Below are positions 6,605 through 28,667 of a stretch of DNA of 64,000 bases, in pieces (within the stretch, counting starts at the first letter, position 1; each line of letters starts with the position of its first letter). The stretch is from a phage. The stretch lies in the NCBI GenBank assembly GCA_036611895.1, contig GCA_036611895.1_4766.1; one strand, written 5' to 3'. Under the pieces are notes generated by a model. The model did not search any database. It saw nothing but the letters and a program-made list of their open reading frames with translations, and was not told the origin of the DNA. Made by a program: the position numbers and the translations under genes.

Positions 6605-8665
6605 TTACTTAGTAGCCTTGATCAGCTTGGTAGCTAACTTAGTTTCTTCTTCAGTCAGTCCCATTGCAGTGAATGACTTCTTAGCATGACGCTTATAGTC
6701 TTGCAGAGCATGGCCTTTCTGATAGTCAGAGTACGTCGTATCGTTAAGGATGCTACGCAGATTATCAGCGTGTTTACCAGACGGAGCTACTTTAGTGGCA
6801 GCAGCAGAACGTGTAGGTTTAACTGTCTTATCCTGCTTAACAGCTTTAGGTTTACCAATAGGTTTAGCTGTATAGGTAGCACGTACATCAGCAATCTTAG
6901 CTACTACATCACTACCTACACCGAATGCACCCCAAGGCTTTCTGGCTTTGGAACGCAGTTCTACCAGAAGGTCAGCAGCAGCTAACTTATCTTCCGGTGT
7001 TGTTGCATTAAGGAACTCTTTGACTAGTTCCTGGATTTGTTCTTTCACAGTAGGAGCCTTCTTAATAGCAGGTTTAAGGTCAGTAGCTTTCACTGGTTCA
7101 GCAGCTACAGCTTCATTCAGCGACTCTTCCATGTTCAGCGCTTCTTTGCTAGCGACTGTACGGAATTGTTCTACAGAACCAGATGTGAGATTAGTGTATT
7201 TGAGGTTAGTACCACGATGACCACCAACCATAATAAGTGTGGTAGGTGAACTATGGTTCCCAACGATGGCATCATTAAGCAGCTTCTTACCTACCTCTGT
7301 CTTAGACAGATAGATACCGCTGTTAACGTTAAGACGTTCCTCTTCCGGTAGTTCAGCAATAATATGATATGCAGATACACGCATCTTATTGGTGCTGTAC
7401 TCAGGAACAGCAAATACATCTTCAGGTGCTACTTTACCAAGGATAGTTACGTCACCACCGAAGCTACGGATATAGCTCATGGATGCTACGTGCAGACCGT
7501 TAGAACAATCCTGACGACGGTCAGGGTCTACCAGGTCTTCACGTACCTGAACTTTACAGCCTACCCATTGACGAATTCTACCTGAGTGACAGTCAACGAA
7601 TACACGTCTACCATTTTCTGCGTCTTTATACTTCAGACGCTTCAGGAACAGGATTGAACCATCATCAGCAATAGGTAGCTCAGCAGTTTCCATGAATTTC
7701 ATCAGGTCTTCTACTGAGTGCAGACGGTCTTTAATAACCGGAGCCAGACGCTCAAGGAACTTAGTAAAGCCCTTGTAGTCTTTCAGCTGGGCAGACTGAC
7801 GTAGATGACGATGCAGGTTTTCAACTCCGGGGATAACCCCATTATTGGTAACAGCAACAACCACTTCGTCTTCCTTCACTTCGGTGTGAAAGTTAGCATC
7901 ATCAGTACTGATAGCACCTAATGCAGCCAGCTTCTCAGAAGCAGCAGCCAGCTTATCCTGGTTCGTAGTTTTAGCTATTTCTACATAAGGAGATGGCGTT
8001 ACATCACGACTGGTAAATACAATGTGTACTCCTTTGATGTGCTGAGCTTGTTTAGCAAACTCACTCATTTCATCATCGGATACTGCACGAATTGCAATAG
8101 GCCATTCTCGTGCAAGGATACGATTGGTATGGTCATAACCCCAACTCAGTACGTCATTGATAAAACGAACCAGTGCAGGATGGTTATGGTCCTTATCCCA
8201 GCCAGTAACCCACATCAGGTTTTCACGTCTGTCGTAGAAACCATCAGATACAGTTACTTCTGGTTCATTAGCCTGTACAGCCAGGAAGGTATCCATAGCT
8301 TTAGATACTAACGTCTTAGTAGGATTGCCCAGCTTAATATCTGAGACGATATGTGCAGGAGGAACACCTGTACCATCCTGGAAGAACTCTTTAAGTTTAG
8401 CTTTAGCTACCTTGAAGAAACGGACGAATCCGTTGGTGTTCTTCTCTGCTTCTAGATACTCAGTACGTAATGCTACTTCTGGCGCAATGTTTACTTCTAC
8501 CAGGTCTTTGGTGGTTCCCAGACCTTTGGTTTGTGCTTCAGATACAATGCGAGCAACCCGTGGGTCGTTCTGAGGATATACAATTGTGGAGCCATCAGGC
8601 TTCCACAGTGTGAGGTTACGACTGTCAACTGCCAGTGCGATGATAGAAATCAGTTCGATTTTCAT
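6605..8665 (-). CDS. rIIB: rIIB-like protein (assigned by synteny with upstream rIIA-like gene)
   Basis: 686 aa ORF directly downstream of the GHKL-ATPase gene with 5-nt spacing. No diagnostic motif; call is synteny only. Confidence 0.45.
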   Translation of the reverse strand: MKIELISIIALAVDSRNLTLWKPDGSTIVYPQNDPRVARIVSEAQTKGLGTTKDLVEVNIAPEVALRTEYLEAEKNTNGFVRFFKVAKAKLKEFFQDGTGVPPAHIVSDIKLGNPTKTLVSKAMDTFLAVQANEPEVTVSDGFYDRRENLMWVTGWDKDHNHPALVRFINDVLSWGYDHTNRILAREWPIAIRAVSDDEMSEFAKQAQHIKGVHIVFTSRDVTPSPYVEIAKTTNQDKLAAASEKLAALGAISTDDANFHTEVKEDEVVVAVTNNGVIPGVENLHRHLRQSAQLKDYKGFTKFLERLAPVIKDRLHSVEDLMKFMETAELPIADDGSILFLKRLKYKDAENGRRVFVDCHSGRIRQWVGCKVQVREDLVDPDRRQDCSNGLHVASMSYIRSFGGDVTILGKVAPEDVFAVPEYSTNKMRVSAYHIIAELPEEERLNVNSGIYLSKTEVGKKLLNDAIVGNHSSPTTLIMVGGHRGTNLKYTNLTSGSVEQFRTVASKEALNMEESLNEAVAAEPVKATDLKPAIKKAPTVKEQIQELVKEFLNATTPEDKLAAADLLVELRSKARKPWGAFGVGSDVVAKIADVRATYTAKPIGKPKAVKQDKTVKPTRSAAATKVAPSGKHADNLRSILNDTTYSDYQKGHALQDYKRHAKKSFTAMGLTEEETKLATKLIKATK

Positions 8666-14929: not shown

Positions 14930-15436
14930 TTATTTGCTGCTTCTTGCAGCTACTGGTTTGTTTTCCTGGTTCTGATACTTACCATTGTAATTAGCAGGTT
15001 CTTGAACCAGATGAAATAATACTTGAGCTATCCCAGCACCAGCCGGGATATGCAATTTCTTACGACCATGATAGACCAATTCAAGGGTGAGATACCCTTT
15101 CCATCCTGGTTCTATTACGGTATTGAACACTGATAATGCACGTCTTGCCCATGTAGACTTATCGTGAACTATAGCTACGCAGGACGGGGACATGTTGAAC
15201 TTCTCAATTGCTGAAGCCAATGTGAATTTACCGAAATGGCGTGATACTTGATTTCCATCAACAACCTTCACCATTGGAATCAATCCAAATAAGCGATAGA
15301 AGGTAATATCTTGTTTGATACGAATATCATAACCAGCTTCACCCAATCCATAGCTTACACCGTGTTCAGATATCTTACGGTCTGGGACATCCAGCAACTG
15401 GGATGAACGATATAGAGAATTACCATTAACAACCAT
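14930..15436 (-). CDS. dcd: dCTP deaminase / dUTPase-fold enzyme
   Basis: 168 aa. GLGEAGYDIR, AIVHDKSTWARRALSVFNTVIEPGWKGYLTLEL and IPAGAGIAQ resemble dCTP deaminase/dUTPase motifs. Confidence 0.7.
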   Translation of the reverse strand: MVVNGNSLYRSSQLLDVPDRKISEHGVSYGLGEAGYDIRIKQDITFYRLFGLIPMVKVVDGNQVSRHFGKFTLASAIEKFNMSPSCVAIVHDKSTWARRALSVFNTVIEPGWKGYLTLELVYHGRKKLHIPAGAGIAQVLFHLVQEPANYNGKYQNQENKPVAARSSK

Positions 15437-16611
15437 TATTTCATTCCTTTAGGGATATGAACTACCTCCCCAAAAGGTACGGTAGCATTGGGATTATTCA
15501 GAACACACCAGATGATTGGAATATCAAATGGCAATTCTTCCATTGGACGAACATACATATCGGAGAATATGATTGCAGCGGTTGGCTTATTCTTAATAAT
15601 CCAATCTCGTACAGGCACAAGGCTTGTACCACCACGACCTGTAATCTTAATCTCTTCAAAAGTATCTTCTTCAGTGATGTCTATCTCTTCTTGAATAATA
15701 TCGTCGAAAGTAATTAAGGACATCTTCTTAGGGTTGAACTGGCTTTTAACGTAGGCAACCTCTGAGTTAAAACGCAGAGAGTCAGCACTACTAATAGAAC
15801 CAGATACATCCTCAAAGTAGGCTAAGTGACGTAGGCGTCCTTCATCATCTTCCAGGGAAGGTAGATAAATATCAGTGTAACGACGGTTAGGTCTGGCCCA
15901 CGTATAGTGTGTGTCATCAATGTCGGTAAAGAAGTTCATGAGAACTTCCTGCCAAGGAACCACTGGTTTAAGGAATTGGGTAATGACCTCTTCCATACGA
16001 CCAGCACCCTTACCGGGCATCTGTCCACCAGCCATCTTCTGGCTCTGCATTGCACGTACTACGTTGTTGACTACAGCACCCTGGGACTGTCCCGAAGTGG
16101 GGGATTTCATGTCGCCAGCAAGACCTGCTCCAGCACCCCCTGACGGCTTCTGCCTTTTCTGAGGGTTCTTCATCAGGTCATCGTAGATGTCTTCTTCGAC
16201 CCATCCTTTATATTGCGGGTCTTTGCAAATGCCTTCATCAATGCCAGTGAACTTGTAGCCATCTTCTTCTAACTGAAGGTTAATGAAGTGGTCACAAGCC
16301 TGGTTCCATACTTCTGGGTCACGGCTTCCACGACGGATGTCATGTAGATATGCTACATGCCATAGTTCATGCATTAATACTGTTTCTCTTGCATCTGGAC
16401 ACATCCAGATAAAGAAATCAGGATTGAAATGGAGTTCTATCCCATCAGTACATGCAGTGGGACAATCCTCACGTTTCCATGAGAATTTAAGACTACACAG
16501 TAATGAACCAAAGAACGCAGCAGACTTGCCCAGAAAGGCTTGGGCCTGAATACGGTCATACTCACGCATGAGTTGTTCATCACTAAGTGTGTGCTGAGGA
16601 AATTGGTTCAT
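15436..16611 (-). CDS. vWA-like domain protein with HExxH metallopeptidase-like motif (partner of AAA+ ATPase)
   Basis: 391 aa. HELWH motif in N-terminal half; C-terminal vWA-like segment; 8-nt from upstream AAA+ gene. Confidence 0.55.
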   Translation of the reverse strand: MNQFPQHTLSDEQLMREYDRIQAQAFLGKSAAFFGSLLCSLKFSWKREDCPTACTDGIELHFNPDFFIWMCPDARETVLMHELWHVAYLHDIRRGSRDPEVWNQACDHFINLQLEEDGYKFTGIDEGICKDPQYKGWVEEDIYDDLMKNPQKRQKPSGGAGAGLAGDMKSPTSGQSQGAVVNNVVRAMQSQKMAGGQMPGKGAGRMEEVITQFLKPVVPWQEVLMNFFTDIDDTHYTWARPNRRYTDIYLPSLEDDEGRLRHLAYFEDVSGSISSADSLRFNSEVAYVKSQFNPKKMSLITFDDIIQEEIDITEEDTFEEIKITGRGGTSLVPVRDWIIKNKPTAAIIFSDMYVRPMEELPFDIPIIWCVLNNPNATVPFGEVVHIPKGMK

Positions 16612-21539: not shown

Positions 21540-21656
21540 TTATTTACGTTTACGTTTACGTTTGGCCTCTGCCTCACGTTTGAGAGCTTCGTTAATACGC
21601 TTTAACACTAGTTCTCTGTGAGCATAGAAGTCAGCTACTGCACGATGATTAATCAT
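21540..21656 (-). CDS. candidate 38-aa highly basic micro-protein (C-terminal KRKRKRK)
   Basis: Hand translation MINHRAVADFYAHRELVLKRINEALKREAEAKRKRKRK; ATG overlaps stop of upstream RNAP II small-subunit gene (ATGATTAA). Below ORF-track size cutoff. Confidence 0.3.
   Translation of the reverse strand: MINHRAVADFYAHRELVLKRINEALKREAEAKRKRKRK
21543..21563. repeat. (ACGTTT)3 perfect tandem hexamer repeat
   Basis: tttacgtttacgtttacgttt read directly; encodes the KRKRKR tail of the micro-ORF on the minus strand. Confidence 0.8.
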
Positions 21657-22467
21657 TGTTTACTAGCTCCTTATCAGCGAACTCCAGTACAGCTTTGTTG
21701 TAGCTGGTTCCCTGATAGTTGATGTGGTAGCCGCAGGCATATGTACGCCCACGTTTGTCATACTTGTGAGCCAGTGAGAAGTTATTACCTTCTTTGGTTA
21801 CTAACTCCATTACTTCCTTAGCTGTACGGCTGTACTTCTCAAAGGCTTTAACACGTTTCTCATAGTCCTGACGGGTTTCACCCTCTTTGGGTTTATCCAT
21901 GTTAGGACGAGAGTCTTTTACATAGTTAGCAACGTCCCAGTTAATACAGAGACGTTGGTTATTCATACGGTTGATGTGGTCAAGACAGACATCCATCTCA
22001 TGATGGTTCTTCTTGAGGATGATGCTACCTCTGCTTTCATAGTAACCAGTATCACGATTACACAGAACAGGCTTAGGAGCACTTACGATAGGCAATGGAT
22101 ACTGGAATGCTTCCAGTTCCATCTGAACATCTTCACTAATCTCATAGATAACACCGAACTTGTCGATGGTAGGGTCATAGTTGAAGCAGTCATTCTCTGC
22201 CATCTTATATAGGCAGTCAGCGATGTACTGAGCATCATCTGAGTGACTCATGAGAGAGCCAATCATAGTTTGGATGTCAGCACGTTTATGTAAGGCAATC
22301 TGCACCATTGCATCAATGAGCAGCTTATAATCAATTTCTAAATAGGCAGCGAATGCCTTAAAGTCAATTTCTTCGGAGTCCTCGAATTCCTTCCTCATGC
22401 GAGGGAGTAATTGATTCTTGTTGAAAAGGATTTCAAGTCGCTTCTGATGTTCAATAGATGAGTACAT
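21649..22467 (-). CDS. phage RNA polymerase II, N-terminal-type subunit
   Basis: 272 aa. KYDKRGRTYACGYHINYQG resembles the T7 RNAP DxRGR region; directly upstream of the catalytic subunit. Confidence 0.7.
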   Translation of the reverse strand: MYSSIEHQKRLEILFNKNQLLPRMRKEFEDSEEIDFKAFAAYLEIDYKLLIDAMVQIALHKRADIQTMIGSLMSHSDDAQYIADCLYKMAENDCFNYDPTIDKFGVIYEISEDVQMELEAFQYPLPIVSAPKPVLCNRDTGYYESRGSIILKKNHHEMDVCLDHINRMNNQRLCINWDVANYVKDSRPNMDKPKEGETRQDYEKRVKAFEKYSRTAKEVMELVTKEGNNFSLAHKYDKRGRTYACGYHINYQGTSYNKAVLEFADKELVNND

Positions 22468-22494: not shown

Positions 22495-22520
22495 ACCAAA
22501 AGCTGCGGAGCAGCTATTAC
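22495..22520 (-). promoter_or_regulatory. vRNAP-type hairpin promoter candidate (P-d), 45 nt upstream of RNAP II gene
   Basis: agctgc-gga-gcagct: 6-bp stem, GGA loop, same architecture as the three hairpins at 26.98-28.16 kb; preceded by aaccaaa. Confidence 0.45.
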
Positions 22521-22781
22521 CTAACGCTTAGTCCAAAAGGTAATACGAATACTGTTTTCATTACCGATGTAGTCGATGCGTACATGCAGACCATTACCAT
22601 TAAACTCATTACTTTTCTTCTGATAAGGCCAGACTAGGCTAGTCATAGGTATTTTGATGAAACCAGATATGTGGCCTAGCTTAGTACGACTCTTTAATTC
22701 ATTTTGTAATGCACAATAGATGTCGTGCCGTGTGAGTGCTCTGGCTCTGACTTGAGCAGACCATAATTCTTCATATGTCAT
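22521..22781 (-). CDS. hypothetical protein (86 aa)
   Basis: ORF track. Confidence 0.4.
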   Translation of the reverse strand: MTYEELWSAQVRARALTRHDIYCALQNELKSRTKLGHISGFIKIPMTSLVWPYQKKSNEFNGNGLHVRIDYIGNENSIRITFWTKR

Positions 22782-23161
22782 GAGAAGGTTCCCCAGTAGA
22801 TATAATCATCTCCCAGAATGGGCTTCCAGGCTTCGTCAAACATGACATTGCCAGTAGCATTGGCAAACATAGGAGCGATTTCTTCATCCTTATAGCCAGC
22901 TAATCCACAACCAATACGTGTTACTTTAAAGTCCCACTCTGGATGTGCTGCTGCATACAGGATAAATGCTTCAACGAATGTTTTAATGTCTTCTAAGGAC
23001 ATAGTCTTTATTGACTGGTCTTTGGTTGGAATTGCATAGCTGCAACCATAATGGCCTACGCCCATACCCCAACGAGCACCATGCTTTTTATATGCAACTT
23101 TCGCTGCACCAGCACCGTGACGACCTGCTAAATTACTTCCGAATACAAAGACTTCTTTCAC
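22778..23161 (-). CDS. hypothetical protein with glycine-rich nucleotide-binding-like N-terminus
   Basis: 127 aa. VFVFGSNLAGRHGAGAAKVA and IGCGLAGY motifs; family not assignable by eye. Confidence 0.45.
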   Translation of the reverse strand: MKEVFVFGSNLAGRHGAGAAKVAYKKHGARWGMGVGHYGCSYAIPTKDQSIKTMSLEDIKTFVEAFILYAAAHPEWDFKVTRIGCGLAGYKDEEIAPMFANATGNVMFDEAWKPILGDDYIYWGTFS

Positions 23162-23340
23162 ACTAACCCCCTTACTTCTTTATAGAATTTAACAGCGTCT
23201 TCCTGAGTTTCAGGCTTAACTTCATAAACATAGTCAAGAGCTTGTTCGTGGTCTTTCTGTTCCTTCTTGGTTCTACAATGACCACATTTACCATCCCATT
23301 GGGATACATGGCCTTTACCACATTTGCATTGTTTATTCAT
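23158..23340 (-). CDS. zinc-ribbon small protein (start adjusted)
   Basis: CKCGKGH...CGHC four-Cys motif; ATG overlaps stop of upstream gene. Confidence 0.4.
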   Translation of the reverse strand: MNKQCKCGKGHVSQWDGKCGHCRTKKEQKDHEQALDYVYEVKPETQEDAVKFYKEVRGLV

Positions 23341-23713
23341 TAGGATTCTCCACAAAATAGTTATATATAGCCTTTACTAGCTTCTCTTTAATAACCTCAC
23401 CATGACAAGGTTTTGGATAACAGAAGCACTGTAAGGCCAATCCTTTCTCGTCAATGGCTTTATTACCAAGACGATTAAGTTCATCCAGTACAACTGGATT
23501 CTTTCTCATGATTTGTTCATTAAGCCATACTCGATACTTGGCTATAACCTGTTCTCTCGAACCGTCTTTACCAATGACAAATGGATTGCCTAATGGTGAG
23601 CCACGCCCAATATACTCACCGGATTTACTGTGATGTTTATTAACAATAGTAATTGATCGTGCAGTTACACCCATTAGAGTATCTGTGTTATTACCTATTG
23701 AAATAGTCTTCAT
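23333..23713 (-). CDS. hypothetical protein (126 aa) with GNPF and CxC...CHG motifs
   Basis: RGSPLGNPF ... CFCYPKPCHG; resembles a DUF-type family common in phages, identity not verifiable here. Confidence 0.45.
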   Translation of the reverse strand: MKTISIGNNTDTLMGVTARSITIVNKHHSKSGEYIGRGSPLGNPFVIGKDGSREQVIAKYRVWLNEQIMRKNPVVLDELNRLGNKAIDEKGLALQCFCYPKPCHGEVIKEKLVKAIYNYFVENPNE

Positions 23714-24024
23714 GGTTTAAGTACCTGGAATGGGAACACAGGACGTTTACTACGCCACTGGTTCATAGCTAATTCACTGGTTTCAGAACCATCATGTAAG
23801 TCATAGATAAATGAGATTACATAGTCTGGTTCTTCCGGGAAGTTCTCTGTAGAGAATGGTAGCCCAGATTCCTTAAGGATAGGAACCAGTGGTGATTCAG
23901 CATTACAATAGAGGGTAAACTCTTCATTAAATGCCTGGCTTGTCTGAGATACATAATCAATATTACGCATCATCTTATCTACATCAGTAAATGTAGAATC
24001 ATGAACTACTAGAATAGTTTTCAT
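23710..24024 (-). CDS. hypothetical protein (104 aa)
   Basis: ORF track; 4-nt overlaps with neighbours. Confidence 0.45.
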   Translation of the reverse strand: MKTILVVHDSTFTDVDKMMRNIDYVSQTSQAFNEEFTLYCNAESPLVPILKESGLPFSTENFPEEPDYVISFIYDLHDGSETSELAMNQWRSKRPVFPFQVLKP

Positions 24025-24275
24025 ACCTTTCTTAATGTCCCATAGATGTTATTATCGACAATATTCAAATCACAAAAACCAATCTCTTCTTGTCTCCCAG
24101 AGGATACCCAGATATTGTTTTCTGTTAGCTTAGGCTTTTTAGAGAATCCTATTAGTGAGGTATTAGCACTCTTATATTGACGAGGTAGTAATGCTATATA
24201 CTTAACCCAGTGAGGCACTTGAATAGTATGCTTCATATATTCCACAGTCTTGCCTGTAGGATATGTAATAATCAT
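24021..24275 (-). CDS. hypothetical protein (84 aa)
   Basis: ORF track. Confidence 0.4.
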   Translation of the reverse strand: MIITYPTGKTVEYMKHTIQVPHWVKYIALLPRQYKSANTSLIGFSKKPKLTENNIWVSSGRQEEIGFCDLNIVDNNIYGTLRKV

Positions 24276-24632
24276 TTAGTACCTTACAACATATACGGGT
24301 TTATTAAGCCTATTCATGATATCAATCATGTGCTTGGTTCCTTTGGAATTACCATCCCAGAAGCACACAGCAGCATCTGCAAATTCACCCATTTCTTTAT
24401 TCCTACGGAATCCAGCAGATTTGCCATAGGTATCCCATTCAGCAGGGAATACATGTATCTGCATATTTGCAGATTTCCATAGATGGAAAGCTAATATATC
24501 TGCTCCACGAGCCATACCACATACCAATTCTGGGCATTCCGGTATATTCCCTGAATTTACTAACTTCTGTAATTCCTCAATCATACGATTGGTATTTACG
24601 AAGTCTCTCCCACCAGCTACAATCAGTCTCAT
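24276..24632 (-). CDS. SLOG/DprA-LOG-like Rossmann-fold protein
   Basis: 118 aa. RLIVAGGRDF ... GMARGADILAFHLW ... VCFWDGNSKGT resemble the Smf/DprA-LOG (SLOG) superfamily signature. Confidence 0.45.
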   Translation of the reverse strand: MRLIVAGGRDFVNTNRMIEELQKLVNSGNIPECPELVCGMARGADILAFHLWKSANMQIHVFPAEWDTYGKSAGFRRNKEMGEFADAAVCFWDGNSKGTKHMIDIMNRLNKPVYVVRY

Positions 24633-24850
24633 TTCTGATACCCCTGTATATAGTTAATACGGCGAATACGTTGAGTAGATGCCTTAACAGCTATCTGTTG
24701 ATTCTCTTCTTTATGCTGATTATTCAGGATCTTATCCCATTCCTTCTGGTTCCGTTGTTTCTGTAGAATACGACTACACTTCTTATGATTAGCAACTCCT
24801 CTTCCTTTATTGCAAATCGGGCAAATACCATAATTAGTGCTGAACAACAT
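24629..24850 (-). CDS. zinc-ribbon small protein
   Basis: CPICNK ... HKKC motif. Confidence 0.4.
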   Translation of the reverse strand: MLFSTNYGICPICNKGRGVANHKKCSRILQKQRNQKEWDKILNNQHKEENQQIAVKASTQRIRRINYIQGYQK

Positions 24851-24862
24851 TTTGTTTATTCC

Positions 24863-25096
24863 TTAGTAAGTATATTCAAGAGAGGTTTTACCATCTGTAT
24901 GACATACAGATACTTTACTATCTATGAAGTACATCTTGTTATTAATACGTACTTCATCAATAGAGAAATTGCTAAAAGGTTTAGAGTACACCTTACGAAC
25001 AATAGTTCTGTTAGTACCCTTTAGTTTAATTCGGGCATAACCTTTTCGGTCAACGAATATCTCATTACCTACAATTACATCACTGAGGTTGTTCAC
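24863..25096 (-). CDS. hypothetical protein (77 aa)
   Basis: ORF track. Confidence 0.4.
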   Translation of the reverse strand: MNNLSDVIVGNEIFVDRKGYARIKLKGTNRTIVRKVYSKPFSNFSIDEVRINNKMYFIDSKVSVCHTDGKTSLEYTY

Positions 25097-25397
25097 TTAG
25101 TGCCTCCAGTAGTATTTTACGAATAACATTTACATCAGATTCAGTACCAATTAAACCAACAGGTTTACCTGTACTATCTGTTACAAAGGATGCAATCCTT
25201 TCCATCTCTGCTGTAATTAACTTGTCACCACTAATAAGACGATTACGAAGGTAAGCTTCATAAGCTACCTCTACATCTTCTACCGTGGTTCTTTCATTAC
25301 GAGTGAATGGATTACTTAATGGGAAAGGTAAGTGGATACGTATATTCCGGTCAGCTATCTTAGCTGAATGGGGAAGTATACAAACAATTTCATTCAA
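25080..25397 (-). CDS. hypothetical protein (105 aa)
   Basis: ORF track. Confidence 0.4.
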   Translation of the reverse strand: MNEIVCILPHSAKIADRNIRIHLPFPLSNPFTRNERTTVEDVEVAYEAYLRNRLISGDKLITAEMERIASFVTDSTGKPVGLIGTESDVNVIRKILLEALSEQPQ

Positions 25398-25647
25398 GGT
25401 TATTTCTCCTATTTAAATACATATCTAACTATTCAAGAATAAAAAATAGAAGCCCTCCTAATGGAGGACTCCCAGTTCTACTAATGCACCATAGGTTAAT
25501 AGTGCAAACATGGTTATTGAGATAAGCCAGTTCATTTGAACGCATCCGGGTGATTGAAGGTAACAATCTTACGTACTGGTTCAGATGTCTTTTTCTTAGC
25601 AGCCAGACGCTCTTTCATCTTCTGTACGTCTTCTTTGGTTCCCATGA

Positions 25648-25830
25648 TTAATGACTTACGCATGATTTAGTACTCCACATAAAGTTAAAAGGTTTACTGT
25701 TACGTACAATTCTTACAACCATTTGATAGCCATTGAGTTGTACAACACCATAGTGTCGTTTCTGTACACCAGTGTGATACCTACGAAAGATACACTCTTC
25801 AATGGCATCTTCTATGTTAGTGAATATCAC
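25648..25830 (-). CDS. hypothetical protein (60 aa)
   Basis: ORF track. Confidence 0.35.
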   Translation of the reverse strand: MIFTNIEDAIEECIFRRYHTGVQKRHYGVVQLNGYQMVVRIVRNSKPFNFMWSTKSCVSH

Positions 25831-26045
25831 TGGTTCCTCTTTGCAAACTCTTCGGCTTCCTTAGCCCAGAGTTGCTTACGATCTTCTTTAGCTACGATGG
25901 AAGCAAACAGGCATTTAACGAATACAACTGGTAACTTACAAATAAGTACCAGCTTAGTAATTACCCACTTGGCTCCATTGAGAATGTAACCACGTAGGTG
26001 ATAAAGCACATAACAGAGTATTACAAACGCAATGAAGTCCAACAT
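25827..26045 (-). CDS. small membrane protein (72 aa)
   Basis: MLDFIAFVILCYVLYHL hydrophobic N-terminus. Confidence 0.4.
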   Translation of the reverse strand: MLDFIAFVILCYVLYHLRGYILNGAKWVITKLVLICKLPVVFVKCLFASIVAKEDRKQLWAKEAEEFAKRNQ

Positions 26046-26047
26046 AG

Positions 26048-26347
26048 TTAGTCCTTACAGTTAATGAATTGAGAATGTAATTCACCATTACAGATATTCA
26101 TACCATCTTCATAGTATGGCTCACCTAGTTCTTCATAGTAGGCTTTGTCATCAGGATGTGGTCTAACCACCAGGTCAAATGCAGGTAATTGACTGCCACC
26201 ATCAATCACGTTGAGTAAGCTGAATATAGCTCCCTCAATACGTTCAGTAGTATCTCCTCCATCTGGAGTATTTGCCCAGTAATGTACAATTTCTTTAGCA
26301 TTAAGTAGGAATTTATTCCTTACTTCTTCCTCAGTAAGTGCTCTCAT
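26048..26347 (-). CDS. acidic early protein (99 aa)
   Basis: ORF track; Asp/Glu-rich composition (DKAYYEELGEPYYEDG). Confidence 0.45.
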   Translation of the reverse strand: MRALTEEEVRNKFLLNAKEIVHYWANTPDGGDTTERIEGAIFSLLNVIDGGSQLPAFDLVVRPHPDDKAYYEELGEPYYEDGMNICNGELHSQFINCKD

Positions 26348-26444: not shown

Positions 26445-26475
26445 GTCTAGTTAAAAATAAAAGACTCCCCGAAGG
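26445..26475 (-). terminator. intrinsic terminator after first early gene of promoter P-c
   Basis: gactccc-cgaa-gggagtc hairpin preceded on plus strand by aaaaataaaa. Confidence 0.45.
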
Positions 26476-26490
26476 GAGTCTATTGGTTGA

Positions 26491-26871
26491 TTAGAAAGTC
26501 AGTTTACGAGCATATTTATTCTCGTCTGCTGGGATGTCAGCAGCCTCTGCTTTCACACGACGAAGTTGAACTTGCAGGTTAATGATACCTTCTTCACCTG
26601 GTTCCAGGTTCTGAGCATATGCGATTAACTGTTCCAGCAAGTCGTTCTGTGCACAACGCATAGCACGGAAGTCAGCATTGCTGCTATTGGTAGGCAGCGG
26701 TTCCTGAGTATCCAGTGGAATACCAGTAGGCAGTGAGATGAATTTCTCATCATCAGAGCCTTCATTAGCCACATAACCAATGTTCAGCCAGAACTGAGCT
26801 TTTGGTTTGTCAGTTTTAGCAGTAGAAGCAGTATCGTTAGACTGACCGAAAGTGAATTTTTGAATAGACAT
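26491..26871 (-). CDS. early protein (126 aa; start at internal ATG with GGAGAG RBS)
   Basis: ORF track 26491..26964; annotated first ATG lies only about 19 nt from promoter hairpin centre with no RBS, internal Met (MSIQKFTF) has one. Confidence 0.5.
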
Positions 26872-26969
26872 TTTGTACTCTCCAGATTTATGTGATTTAC
26901 GGGTGAACTCGTCGGTGAGAACACCCAAACAAAAGGATAAAAGTTCAATGATTAGTGGATGCATTTACA

Positions 26970-27000
26970 TCATCCATAAGACGCGGAGCGTCTTGGTTTT
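26970..27000 (-). promoter_or_regulatory. vRNAP-type hairpin early promoter (P-c)
   Basis: tccataa-gacgc-gga-gcgtc-ttggtttt: 5-7 bp stem with GGA loop; conserved flanks shared with P-b. Confidence 0.6.
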
Positions 27001-27299: not shown

Positions 27300-27325
27300 T
27301 CCAATAGAAGCGGAGCTTCTTGGTT
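27300..27325 (-). promoter_or_regulatory. vRNAP-type hairpin early promoter (P-b)
   Basis: tccaata-gaagc-gga-gcttc-ttggtttt; matches the N4 early promoter hairpin as I recall it (GAAGCGGAGCTTC). Confidence 0.6.
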
Positions 27326-27785: not shown

Positions 27786-28109
27786 TTAGTCTTTAGTCAG
27801 GATGTCAATTACTTTGGAATATTCTGCGTTATAGATCCGAGCGTTCTCTGAATCCTTGCAGAATTCCTCGATACTTTTCTTACGCAGAGTCTCAGTCATA
27901 GCTGTTTCCTCTGCCAGTTTATTAACAAAGGTATGCATTTCTAATTTAGTACGAATGGCTTGTTTCTCTGCCATAGTACTAACATATGAATTAAGCATAC
28001 CTACTGCTTTAGTTGCTGTGCTGAATGTATCTGCAACAGTAGTAGCAGCTGAGTTAACAGTACCAAGTAAAGTTCCTGCGGTCATACGTACAGTAGCTTG
28101 AGTAGTCAT
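27786..28109 (-). CDS. early protein (107 aa), first gene downstream of P-a
   Basis: ORF track; about 49 nt downstream of P-a hairpin centre. Confidence 0.5.
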   Translation of the reverse strand: MTTQATVRMTAGTLLGTVNSAATTVADTFSTATKAVGMLNSYVSTMAEKQAIRTKLEMHTFVNKLAEETAMTETLRKKSIEEFCKDSENARIYNAEYSKVIDILTKD

Positions 28110-28145: not shown

Positions 28146-28168
28146 TCCATAACATGCGGAGCATGTGT
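28146..28168 (-). promoter_or_regulatory. vRNAP-type hairpin early promoter (P-a)
   Basis: tccataa-catgc-gga-gcatg: same stem/GGA-loop architecture and tccataa flank. Confidence 0.55.
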
Positions 28169-28343
28169 AACGTGTAAGGTGGGGTAGGGTAGTGGCTACA
28201 CCGTCAACATACCGGGGGGGCTAGTTGAGTGTAAGGGTGTAGCCCCAGCCACACCACTATGGCTGTACATAGCTATCACAATTTTGACATGCAAAAATAT
28301 TATAGGCACTATCTCTATAAGCAGATAACTTTGAGGTACTAAC

Positions 28344-28472
28344 ATGAAAGATGGATGGGGTAACTACAATCCTACAGACCCTGAGAACTGGCTTCACTTT
28401 ATTGCATGGGCTTGCGCTGTAGGATTCATAAGTATTGTGCTCTTATCACTGGTTCTATCTTATCTGTAAATA
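28344..28472 (+). CDS. candidate 42-aa single-pass membrane micro-protein on the opposite strand
   Basis: MKDGWGNYNPTDPENWLHFIAWACAVGFISIVLLSLVLSYL; GAGGT 6 nt upstream of ATG; TTGACA hexamer about 55 nt upstream; hairpin follows stop. Confidence 0.3.
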
Positions 28473-28473
28473 C

Positions 28474-28497
28474 TATGGGGGATAGCTATTTATCCCC
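28474..28497. terminator. hairpin (possible bidirectional terminator) between micro-ORF and paralog array
   Basis: ggggata-gctatt-tatcccc stem-loop read in sequence. Confidence 0.35.
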
Positions 28498-28667
28498 TAT
28501 TCATCATAGCGTTTAATACCTAAAACCTTGTATAGCTTACCCTTTACAAGCAATGGTCCACCTACTTCTACGAAAGCTAGGCTGTGTACTATCACTGGTT
28601 CAAGTAAGCCTTTTACTGTTATATACCACATATTAATCCTTATAAGCAGTTAAATAGGAGGAAGTGG

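Follow-up and report, generated by a model that had tools for sequence, protein, structure and literature searches.

Stand-alone phage macrodomains of the AdfM type (T4 Tk.4 and PhiKZ gp104) shield phages from DarTG2 (10.1101/2025.11.20.689424; PMC13309987). Sets of viral SLOG, Macro, NADAR and DUF4326 proteins have been predicted to serve as early-expressed processors of ADP-ribose (ADPr) (PMC9503650, Iyer, Burroughs, Anantharaman and Aravind, Viruses 2022; PMC7824862, Viruses 2021), and both of these papers offer predictions only. Also described is ORF83 of phage DruSM1, a SLOG/LOG-like protein with an anti-AVAST type III phenotype that comes from a knock-out screen in a preprint. For gp9, gp11, gp12, gp13 and gp14 of phage N4 (Enquatrovirus N4, NC_008720), we found no published function in the literature. 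Here we describe homologues of these five proteins in a 64,000-nucleotide stretch of phage DNA (contig GCA_036611895.1_4766.1; the window), which is the genome of a Gamaleyavirus (an N4-like, G7C-type coliphage).

Layout of the early region

The block at 22521–26347 is the early host-takeover gene region of this genome. It lies between homologues of N4 gp2 and gp15 and is syntenic with N4 gp6–gp14. The flanking genes and regulatory elements are as follows.

28146..28162, minus strand: early (vRNAP-type) promoter hairpin 1, upstream of the N4 gp1 homologue; exact GCTCCGCNNNTWWTGGA, template-strand stem with GGA loop
27786..28109, minus strand: N4 gp1 homologue, 107 aa; 66% identity to N4 gp1 (tblastn); phrog_5020
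27300..27316, minus strand: early promoter hairpin 2; exact GCTCCGCNNNTWWTGGA, fold z-score -3.6
26973..26989, minus strand: early promoter hairpin 3; exact GCTCCGCNNNTWWTGGA, fold z-score -3.4
26491..26964, minus strand: N4 gp2 homologue, longest ORF 157 aa; 67% identity to N4 gp2; phrog_4099, with the match beginning at residue 32
26462..26481, minus strand: intrinsic-terminator-like hairpin past the gp2 homologue; 8-bp stem with a trailing T run
25447..25474, minus strand: terminator-like hairpin in the 134-nt gap dividing the block; 12-bp stem, then TTTTTT
22495..22511, minus strand: fourth promoter-like hairpin, directly upstream of the RNA polymerase gene; one mismatch, 6-bp stem, GGA loop, z-score -2.8
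21649..22467, minus strand: N4 gp15 homologue (phage middle RNA polymerase subunit), the downstream edge of the block; phrog_2166 E 4e-116, 65% identity to N4 gp15

A previous sequence-only reading had placed the block downstream of early promoters, and three exact minus-strand copies of the promoter motif do lie upstream of it, where 0.03 would be expected by chance. In all three, the template strand forms a 6–7 bp stem with a GGA loop. Both terminator-like hairpins separate these promoters from most of the block. The same reading counted sixteen short genes chained by 4-nt ATGA overlaps; the block is indeed dense, but we found 14 well-supported minus-strand ORFs, encoding 43–127 aa and each preceded by a Shine-Dalgarno-like purine run. 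ATGA overlaps occur at four junctions and GTGA at two, whereas the remaining junctions have overlaps of 8/23, 16 and 17 nt, some gaps of 0–12 nt and the single 134-nt gap. Across the corresponding stretch of the relative ShWW44, 16 CDS are annotated.

26048..26347, minus strand: 99-aa ORF, first in the block; weak phrog_29367 match only
25827..26045, minus strand: 72-aa ORF; phrog_13158, also in 24-32N and ShWW44
25648..25830, minus strand: 60-aa ORF, GTG start; phrog_5407, GTGA overlap with the gene before
25532..25663, minus strand: N4 gp6 homologue, 43 aa; 64% identity to N4 gp6
25080..25397, minus strand: N4 gp9 homologue, 105 aa, degenerate DUF4326-like; phrog_464 E 7e-17, 73% identity to N4 gp9
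24863..25096, minus strand: 77-aa ORF; phrog_10124, relative in ShWW44 only (48% identity)
24629..24850, minus strand: CxxC...HxxC zinc-knuckle-like protein, 73 aa, G7C gp9.1 homologue; phrog_6887, 85% identity to G7C gp9.1
24276..24632, minus strand: SLOG protein, YAcAr family, 118 aa; Pfam PF10686, phrog_289
24021..24275, minus strand: 84-aa ORF, G7C gp9.2 homologue; phrog_1972
23710..24024, minus strand: N4 gp11 homologue, 104 aa; 81% identity to N4 gp11
23333..23713, minus strand: DUF4326 protein, 126 aa, N4 gp12 homologue; DUF4326 E 5e-23
23158..23355, minus strand: four-Cys zinc ribbon, N4 gp13 homologue; CxC...CxxC, 61% identity to N4 gp13
22778..23161, minus strand: minimal macrodomain, 127 aa, N4 gp14 homologue, TARG1/DarG-like class
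22521..22781, minus strand: 86-aa ORF, last in the block; phrog_14487, ATGA overlap with the macrodomain gene

Protein families encoded in the block

The gp14-like macrodomain is the best-supported part of the proposed toolkit. The three ORFs singled out earlier for their motifs (24276–24632, 22778–23161 and 23333–23713, all on the minus strand) have exactly the positions given, and the strings FGSNLAGRHGAGAA, GNPF and CHG are present in the motif-bearing ORFs. The FGSN protein at 22778–23161, however, is a TARG1/DarG-type macrodomain, not the Gly-rich Rossmann-like protein it was taken for. It combines the TARG1/DarG-antitoxin fold with a Thr-Lys/Gly-rich-loop active-site signature; binding of ADP-ribose and its removal from a macromolecule are therefore the most likely activities. 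The sequence does not match the Pfam Macro model, its alignment to TARG1 is statistically weak (E 0.22), and an invariant Ala occupies the position of TARG1 Asp125. The gene is kept across the Schitoviridae, and gp12–gp13–gp14 are kept together from N4 to G7C-like phages, a pattern of conservation that would fit a core function better than a patchily distributed anti-defence gene.

The SLOG call for 24276–24632 holds: the protein scores 31.6 bits against the YAcAr model (cut-off 28.2; E 1.4e-7) and conserves GGRD, GxAxGxD, R77-N78 and T99. Its gene, an accessory insertion separating the homologues of gp9.1 and gp9.2, is found in ShWW44 and 24-32N but missing from N4 and G7C. The protein noted earlier for GNPF and CHG belongs to DUF4326, an identity that can now be added to its motifs. 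The gp9 homologue scores 16.6 bits against the Pfam DUF4326 model, under the cut-off; aligned to the family, it retains PLxNPF and has lost all three Cys and the His of CxCx4CH.

Two four-Cys ribbons had been proposed. The gp13 homologue has four Cys, whereas the protein at 24629–24850 has three Cys and one His. The true start of the gp13 homologue is probably the internal ATG at 23340, which is preceded by GGAG and gives a product of 60 aa. Among the other small proteins, the 99-aa ORF has no homologue in N4, G7C, 24-32N or ShWW44, the gp9.2 homologue has no significant PDB sequence match (top E 0.26, prothrombin fragments), and a PDB sequence search with the gp11 homologue returned no match. 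Searches of Pfam, PHROG, PADLOC, NCBIfam and PDB gave no assignable function for the remaining small block proteins, and PADLOC and NCBIfam gave no functional match for the block.

A predicted ADP-ribose toolkit

Several of these families are joined in single polypeptides elsewhere. Fusion partners among 26 long DUF4326 proteins include YAcAr SLOG (6), DprA-like SLOG (2), NADAR (2), YpsA (1) and Macro (1). Of 150 representative DUF4326 proteins, 7 have a gp13-type ribbon fused N-terminally; this fusion also occurs in locus L039. Around gp14-like macrodomains (80 viral loci; within 8 kb, same strand), DUF4326 is present in 21 and SLOG in 10, against a genome-wide background of 3.2% and 2.5% of phage records, respectively; NADAR–DUF4326, DUF4326–DprA-like and ribbon–DUF4326 fusions occur within such loci. 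On a separate N4-like metagenomic contig, YAcAr, DUF4326, Gp2 and the macrodomain lie in a single early cluster. Related N4-like phages supply much of this co-occurrence signal.

We put at about even the chance that the early region holds a loosely linked toolkit of four or five genes for NAD-derived ADP-ribose, comprising the gp9-like degenerate DUF4326, SLOG, gp12-like DUF4326, gp13-like zinc ribbon and gp14-like macrodomain proteins. Their production would begin as infection starts. In this scheme the macrodomain would strip ADP-ribose from a macromolecule, as T4 and PhiKZ AdfM do from ssDNA. DUF4326 probably works on that substrate or a derivative of it, at a phosphate or ribose moiety, and the zinc ribbon is its putative adaptor to nucleic acid or to a partner. 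For the accessory SLOG protein, binding or cleavage of a nucleotide derived from ADP-ribose is probable. The evidence points to chemistry that either reverses ADP-ribosylation or processes derivatives of ADP-ribose, and the set probably counters host NAD/ADP-ribose-based immunity. A counter-defence role, as previously suggested, is plausible, but the evidence indicates NAD+/ADP-ribose chemistry rather than cyclic-oligonucleotide signalling generally.

An unlikely alternative to counter-defence is that the genes serve housekeeping nucleotide or RNA metabolism, together supplying phage DNA synthesis by salvage of host nucleotides or of products of NAD breakdown. On this view the macrodomain, like Poa1p, would dispose of ADP-ribose-1''-phosphate or O-acetyl-ADPr; DUF4326 would serve as a small phosphatase and SLOG as a nucleotide phosphoribohydrolase resembling LOG. 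The conserved Thr-Lys dyad, however, is a hallmark of the deconjugating TARG1/DarG class. With E values up to 0.1 allowed, the Pfam LOG model (Lysine_decarbox) does not match the SLOG protein, whose gene is accessory rather than core. The genes also sit in the early region for host takeover; dCTP deaminase and thymidylate synthase are encoded elsewhere in the genome.

We are more doubtful that SLOG and/or the macrodomain bind or degrade gcADPR, His-ADPR (Thoeris) or other nucleotide messengers, along the lines of the sequence-only reading. N4-like phage Ab09 keeps a gp14-like gene (H66), yet deletion of its gp59–61 confers sensitivity to Thoeris I, Thoeris II and CBASS II-A, which argues against gp14 as a sufficient anti-signalling factor; Lit1 likewise carries a gp14-like gene but is sensitive to Thoeris II. 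The known anti-signalling hotspot of N4-like phages is another locus, the primase–vRNAP interval. PADLOC gives no similarity to ThsA, and we see no sign here of activity on cyclic oligonucleotides.

It is improbable that these are unrelated small early genes, adjacent because N4-like accessory genes collect here. In 54 of the 80 loci none of the other domains accompanies the macrodomain, so the parts need not act together; two genes with no assignable function intervene between the SLOG gene and DUF4326, and the origin of the co-occurrence signal favours the same view. Mere co-location cannot, however, account for independent fusions of DUF4326 to SLOG, NADAR, Macro and ribbon domains. Least probable is an eraser that limits or reverses modification of host or phage targets by the phage's own ADP-ribosyltransferase (ART): an ‘N4-like / N4-ART’ family is listed among the commonest viral ARTs, often head-packaged (PMC9503650), and writer–eraser pairs are frequent in ADPr biology, but no ART was found in the window (the Pfam scan covered ten unassigned ORFs, and the N4-ART family may have no Pfam model) or is listed in related annotated genomes.

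Comparison with known systems

The counterparts of N4 gp9, gp11, gp12, gp13 and gp14 share order, strand and position immediately upstream of gp15 with N4, at identities of 61–85%, and hairpin promoters lie upstream in both. The window differs in having the SLOG gene and several small ORFs in addition, and lacks counterparts of gp3–5, 7, 8 and 10. ORF83 resembles the SLOG protein as a stand-alone phage SLOG (annotated ‘DprA-like’) whose homologues are fused to DUF4326; its R89-N90...T112 pattern parallels R77-N78...T99, a comparison made by description only.

The gp14-like protein is only 17–23% identical to the DarG macrodomain and human TARG1 (OARD1). It differs from TARG1 in the replacement of Asp125, and from DarG in lacking a DarT-binding C-terminal domain and an adjacent DarT. 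With AdfM it shares small size, stand-alone organization and the DarG/TARG1 structural class; its PDB relatives BT1257, Poa1p, TaqDarG, TARG1 and MtbDarG are also those of T4 AdfM, and it has a Lys equivalent to DarG K80 (compare PhiKZ AdfM K78). It is ~25–30 residues shorter than AdfM and has no significant sequence similarity to T4 AdfM (hhalign probability 1%). The viral SLOG/Macro/NADAR/DUF4326 networks (PMC9503650, PMC7824862) have families, predicted early deployment and fusion partners in common with the window, the last recovered independently here, whereas in the window each domain has a small gene to itself, and a degenerate DUF4326 paralogue and a zinc ribbon of its own come in addition. 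The gene set is of a kind already described in phages, with AdfM-type anti-DarT macrodomains and these networks as its closest counterparts.

Genome setting, layout and predicted promoters of the early block

The window is a genome of the Gamaleyavirus group (G7C-like, N4-like, Schitoviridae). Its early region is N4-like: tblastn and the annotated N4, G7C and ShWW44 records show synteny with N4 gp1, gp2 and onward to gp15/gp16 at the left genome end. The deposited linear genomes of relatives begin at ~28,250–28,600 of the window and run leftwards on the minus strand. Because these starts fall inside it, the window crosses the genome ends, which suggests a circularly assembled or concatemeric contig. 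A terminal repeat is annotated in the first 1160 bp of the G7C genome, and the GC skew of the window switches sign near 28 kb. The early block (22521–26347, minus strand) is matched by 78 phage records, the best at 86–93% identity and 71–86% coverage in 5–8 pieces, so the region is mosaic; the late region matches relatives at ~94%.

Window ORFs with N4 counterparts, assigned by tblastn
27786–28109, gp1 homologue
26491–26964, gp2 homologue
25532–25663, minus strand, gp6 homologue
25080–25397, minus strand, gp9 homologue
23710–24024, minus strand, gp11 homologue
23333–23713, minus strand, gp12 homologue
23158–23355, minus strand, gp13 homologue
22778–23161, minus strand, gp14 homologue
21649–22467, gp15 homologue

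The sequence-only reading had described sixteen genes chained by ATGA overlaps. The tight minus-strand run is present, with 14 ORFs of 43–127 aa, each with a purine-rich Shine–Dalgarno-like run 5′ of its start; in ShWW44, a close relative, the equivalent stretch is annotated with 16 CDS. Four junctions are indeed ATGA, and the remainder are two GTGA junctions, longer overlaps (16, 17 and 23 nt) and gaps (0, 2 and 12 nt, and a single 134-nt gap). Starting the ribbon gene at an internal ATG would shrink the 23-nt overlap to 8 nt (ATGAATAA). The coordinates that this reading gave for three motif-bearing ORFs (22778–23161, 23333–23713 and 24276–24632) are exact. Its two four-Cys ribbons reduce to one, with CxC...CxxC at 23158–23355; the product of 24629–24850 contains CxxC...HxxC only. 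At the head of the block, the 99-aa acidic ORF at 26048–26347 (minus strand) lacks counterparts in N4, G7C, 24-32N and ShWW44, and its PHROG match is only weak; it was probably gained recently as an accessory gene. The gp11-like and gp9.2-like (G7C nomenclature) proteins gave nothing significant in PDB sequence searches with single proteins or profiles, and the region contains no tRNA genes. Outside the block, a 391-aa protein (15436–16611, minus strand) combines a DUF2201_N putative metallopeptidase domain with a VWA-like DUF2201 domain and adjoins a 350-aa ATPase-like ORF, the pair corresponding to N4 gp24/gp25; its ‘HNH endonuclease’ label in one RefSeq relative is unsupported by domain matches.

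The placement of the block downstream of early promoters agrees with three exact minus-strand copies of GCTCCGCNNNTWWTGGA upstream of it, at 28146, 27300 and 26973 (0.03 expected). On the template strand each copy folds into a 6–7 bp stem with a GGA loop. The N4 virion RNA polymerase (vRNAP) promoters are DNA hairpins with a 5–7 bp stem and a 3-nt purine-rich loop, and we take the GCTCCGCNNNTWWTGGA hairpins, which agree with them, to be predicted promoters of this type. Three further hairpins bear on expression.

Further hairpins near the block
22495–22511, minus strand, fourth promoter-like hairpin, one mismatch (GCTCCGCAGCTTTTGGT), 6-bp stem, GGA loop
26481–26462, coding strand, intrinsic-terminator-like hairpin after the gp2 homologue
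25474–25447, coding strand, intrinsic-terminator-like hairpin within the 134-nt gap

The first lies in a 53-nt gap immediately upstream of the homologue of gp15, an RNA polymerase subunit, and was also scored as terminator-like in the terminator scan. Both terminator-like hairpins stand between the three promoter copies and most of the block. Genes beyond them could be transcribed early by terminator read-through or by the middle polymerase; the sequence fits either.

The gp14-like macrodomain

The product of 22778–23161 had been read as a Gly-rich Rossmann-like protein. Fold and active-site alignment place it instead among macrodomains of the TARG1/DarG-like class, and the predicted model has the three-layer α/β/α macro fold. 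Pfam returned no Macro (PF01661) match at E up to 0.1, and a match to 5-FTHF_cyc-lig is spurious; the only NCBIfam match is ‘A1S_2505 family phage non-structural protein’ (E 3e-48), a name whose mentions found in the literature are Acinetobacter locus tags, with nothing on function. Homologues are very numerous and conserved: N4-like phages that infect many different hosts share ~60% identity in this protein. Several records name it ‘N4 gp14-like’; ‘ADP-ribosylglycohydrolase’ and ‘Macro domain Poa1p family’ appear in a few.

The top match in a profile search of PDB sequences is TARG1, at a weak E of 0.22. In this weak but gapless HMMER alignment, IPT46-K47 lies on LIT-K84 of TARG1 (T46-K47 on T83-K84) and R-I-G-C-G-L-A88 on R-I-G-C-G-L-D125. 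Lys47 thus occupies the position of TARG1 Lys84 and DarG Lys80, preceded by Thr. Thr46 is invariant and Lys47 is kept in at least 90% of 46 gp14 homologues; Asn10, Gly84 and Gly86 are likewise invariant. The Gly-rich loop (R82-I-G84-C-G86-L-A-G89, with G84, C85 and G86 invariant) is the counterpart of the DarG diphosphate-binding loop G117-x-G119-N-G121 and of RIGCGLD in TARG1. In Thermus aquaticus DarG (PMC5179494), residues N22, T79, K80 and G117/G119/G121 contact ADP-ribose, and the mutations that do most damage are K80A and N22A. A difference lies at Asp125 of TARG1, which resolves the lysyl-ADP-ribose intermediate, whereas the aligned gp14-like position is an invariant Ala88; the invariant Asp109 or the near-invariant Asp48 might substitute for it. 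The gp14-like protein thus shares the TARG1/DarG fold and keeps most of that class's active-site signature, with Ala at the Asp125 position, the residue equivalences being those of sequence alignment and fold match.

This gp14 allele is 75% identical to that of N4; against the alleles of G7C, ShWW44 and 24-32N, in other respects the window's closest relatives, identity is only 48–49%. Two divergent allele classes therefore circulate, and Gamaleyaviruses seem to exchange them.

DUF4326, the zinc ribbon and the SLOG gene

The GNPF/CHG protein noticed at 23333–23713 is a member of DUF4326 (PF14216; E 5e-23, 81.9 bits against a cut-off of 25) and contains the motifs GRGSPLGNPF and LxCxCxPxxCHG. 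The motifs conserved across the family are YIGRGSPLGNPF and LxCxCxPxxCHG(D/E)VI. The family is large, with 5,945 clusters at E <= 1e-3 in an exhaustive search and members in 1,620 of 50,697 phage records (3.2%), and gave no significant PDB match by sequence, by profile or by Foldseek of the predicted model. It has been proposed to belong to the rhodanese/Cys-phosphatase superfamily, in which a strand leads into a catalytic Cys loop (C-X5-R) followed by a helix. A second copy is the gp9 homologue, which falls in the same PHROG and scores 16.6 bits with Pfam, under the cut-off. It retains PLxNPF, but the three Cys and the His of the second motif are all gone; this loss makes it a probable non-catalytic paralogue. 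T4 nrdA.1-type ORFs annotated as ‘NrdA-like ribonucleotide reductase’ (in T4 at 6923–7390 of locus L002, and in T-even phages generally) are DUF4326 domains and not reductases. That label on homologues of block proteins, together with ‘antirepressor’ and ‘RNA polymerase 1 subunit A’, reflects name propagation with no supporting domain evidence.

The four-Cys ribbon gene (gp13-like) lies immediately downstream of the DUF4326 gene (gp12-like). A ribbon of the gp13 type is fused to the DUF4326 N-terminus in 7 of 150 representative proteins and also in viral locus L039. These fusions tie gp12 and gp13 functionally; in the literature on these domain sets we found no mention of the link.

The claim of a SLOG/DprA-LOG-like protein at 24276–24632 holds for SLOG. 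The 118-aa product matches Pfam YAcAr (PF10686) at 31.6 bits, against a gathering cut-off of 28.2. Neither the LOG (Lysine_decarbox) model nor DNA_processg_A matches it at E up to 0.1, and in place of the PGGxGTxxE motif of LOG/DprA its loop reads G39-M-A-R-G43-A-D45; the LOG and DprA parts of the claim are not borne out. Conserved elements are GGRD, GxAxGxD, R77-N78 and S96-x-G-T99, with the N-terminal strand-loop residues G7-G8-R9-D10 invariant. Given no LOG/DprA model match, the labels ‘DprA’ and ‘GTP-binding domain’ on homologues are again propagated names. The gene is missing in N4 and G7C, found in ShWW44 and 24-32N (tblastn), and inserted precisely between homologues of G7C gp9.1 and gp9.2: it is an accessory insertion. 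It has relatives in 1,286 phage records (2.5%), sometimes fused to helicases; single and profile searches gave no significant PDB sequence match. In a knock-out screen one described SLOG protein, ORF83 of phage DruSM1, scored as a factor against AVAST III; homologues of ORF83 occur fused to DUF4326, and we liken the window protein to ORF83 by description.

Fusions and gene neighbourhoods connect these families. Among 26 long DUF4326 proteins, additional domains are YAcAr (6), YpsA (1), DprA-like SLOG (2), NADAR (2) and Macro (1). In 80 IMG/VR loci encoding a gp14-like macrodomain, counted within 8 kb on the same strand and irrespective of relatedness, DUF4326 is present in 21, SLOG in 10 and the ribbon in 7, set against 3.2% (DUF4326) and 2.5% (SLOG) of phage records genome-wide; fusions there include NADAR–DUF4326 and DUF4326–DprA-like. 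A distant N4-like contig carries YAcAr, DUF4326, Gp2 and the macrodomain in a single early cluster. The tightest SLOG–macrodomain pairing seen is in the small IMG/VR contigs L050 (50–1017) and L051 (2738–3705), where a YAcAr SLOG ORF abuts and overlaps the gp14-like macrodomain ORF. Since the macrodomain stands alone in 54 of the 80 loci, with relatedness uncorrected, the four families are linked but are not obligate partners.

Proposed function and comparison with known macrodomains

Our preferred reading, to which we give about even weight, is that the block encodes a toolkit, made early, for erasing and processing ADP-ribose. The macrodomain would take ADP-ribose off a macromolecule, for which the best precedent is ssDNA modified by DarT-type toxins; DUF4326 and the ribbon would work on the phosphate or ribose remnant, or a related substrate, and the accessory SLOG protein would bind or cleave an ADP-ribose-derived nucleotide. 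The sequence-only reading had proposed counter-defence against nucleotide-signalling immunity. ADP-ribose-based counter-defence is plausible, and a general anti-signalling role is argued against by two phages that are sensitive despite a gp14-like gene: Ab09 (a Pseudomonas N4-like phage), which Thoeris I, Thoeris II and CBASS II-A can restrict once gp59–61 are deleted, and Lit1, sensitive to Thoeris II. Nor is the block the published N4-like anti-signalling hotspot, which spans the stretch between primase and vRNAP and includes SSB and the RuvC-like Bes1 (~28–37 kb in relatives' coordinates) and appears to fall outside the 64-kb window. PADLOC found no defence-system similarity in the block proteins.

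Housekeeping nucleotide or RNA-repair metabolism is the strongest competitor and in our view unlikely; the Poa1p similarity of the macrodomain, the identity of DUF4326 with T4 NrdA.1, sited among nrd/td genes, and the core-like conservation of gp12–14 speak for it. Within the toolkit reading, a narrower version that we consider distinctly doubtful makes gp12, gp13 and gp14 one conserved N4-like machine repairing ADP-ribosylated nucleic acid. The macrodomain would remove ADP-ribose, and DUF4326, as a ribbon-targeted Cys/His-dependent enzyme of a hitherto uncharacterised kind, the residual phospho-ribosyl or phosphate adduct, a repair that would be needed as N4 transcription and replication expose ssDNA (e.g. 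promoter hairpins) to DarT-type toxins. That the block genes share no function at all is improbable, given the fusions. Least probable, by a little, is an eraser for the phage's own ADP-ribosyltransferase: an ‘N4-ART’ family is reported in the literature, but a Pfam scan of ten unassigned window ORFs found no ADP-ribosyltransferase.

Earlier papers describe these domain families, the fusions among them and how phages deploy them early (PMC9503650; PMC7824862), and neutralization of DarT2 by phage macrodomains is experimentally established. New here are the placement of N4 gp14 and its very large family in the TARG1/DarG structural class with residue-level support, the recognition of gp9 as a degenerate DUF4326, the fusion link between the gp13 ribbon and DUF4326, and the status of the SLOG gene as an insertion. 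We found no published function for early genes gp9–gp14 of N4, a classic model phage, for which a DarG/TARG1-type gp14 offers a cheaply testable hypothesis on ADP-ribosyltransferase defence. Fusions of the gp12 and gp13 types to SLOG, NADAR and Macro domains carry this hypothesis to gp12 and gp13; if true, it would give the first biochemical handle on DUF4326. Even then it would add to a theme already described, that of phage-borne ADP-ribose erasers, without opening a new one, and would not surprise a specialist.

Compared with the DarG antitoxin, which has a C-terminal DarT-binding domain and a neighbouring darT, the gp14-like protein has neither: it is a single 127-aa domain among phage early genes. 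The closer comparison is with AdfM. T4 Tk.4 and PhiKZ gp104 (AdfM) are DarG2-like macrodomains that strip DarT2-made ADP-ribose from ssDNA and shield phages on DarTG2 hosts (10.1101/2025.11.20.689424; PMC13309987). Tk.4 matches Pfam Macro (PF01661), and its PDB relatives by sequence (BT1257, Poa1p, TaqDarG, TARG1 and MtbDarG) are the same set that the gp14-like model matches by structure. Matches of gp14 in jumbo phages are to Wroclawvirus, not to PhiKZ-like chimalliviruses, and provide no link to AdfM. Direct profile comparison of Tk.4 with the gp14-like protein gives an hhalign probability of 1%, with the RIGxG loop alone aligned. This sets the gp14 family apart as a shorter lineage of its own within the structural class of AdfM; by analogy, the family may act as AdfM does.
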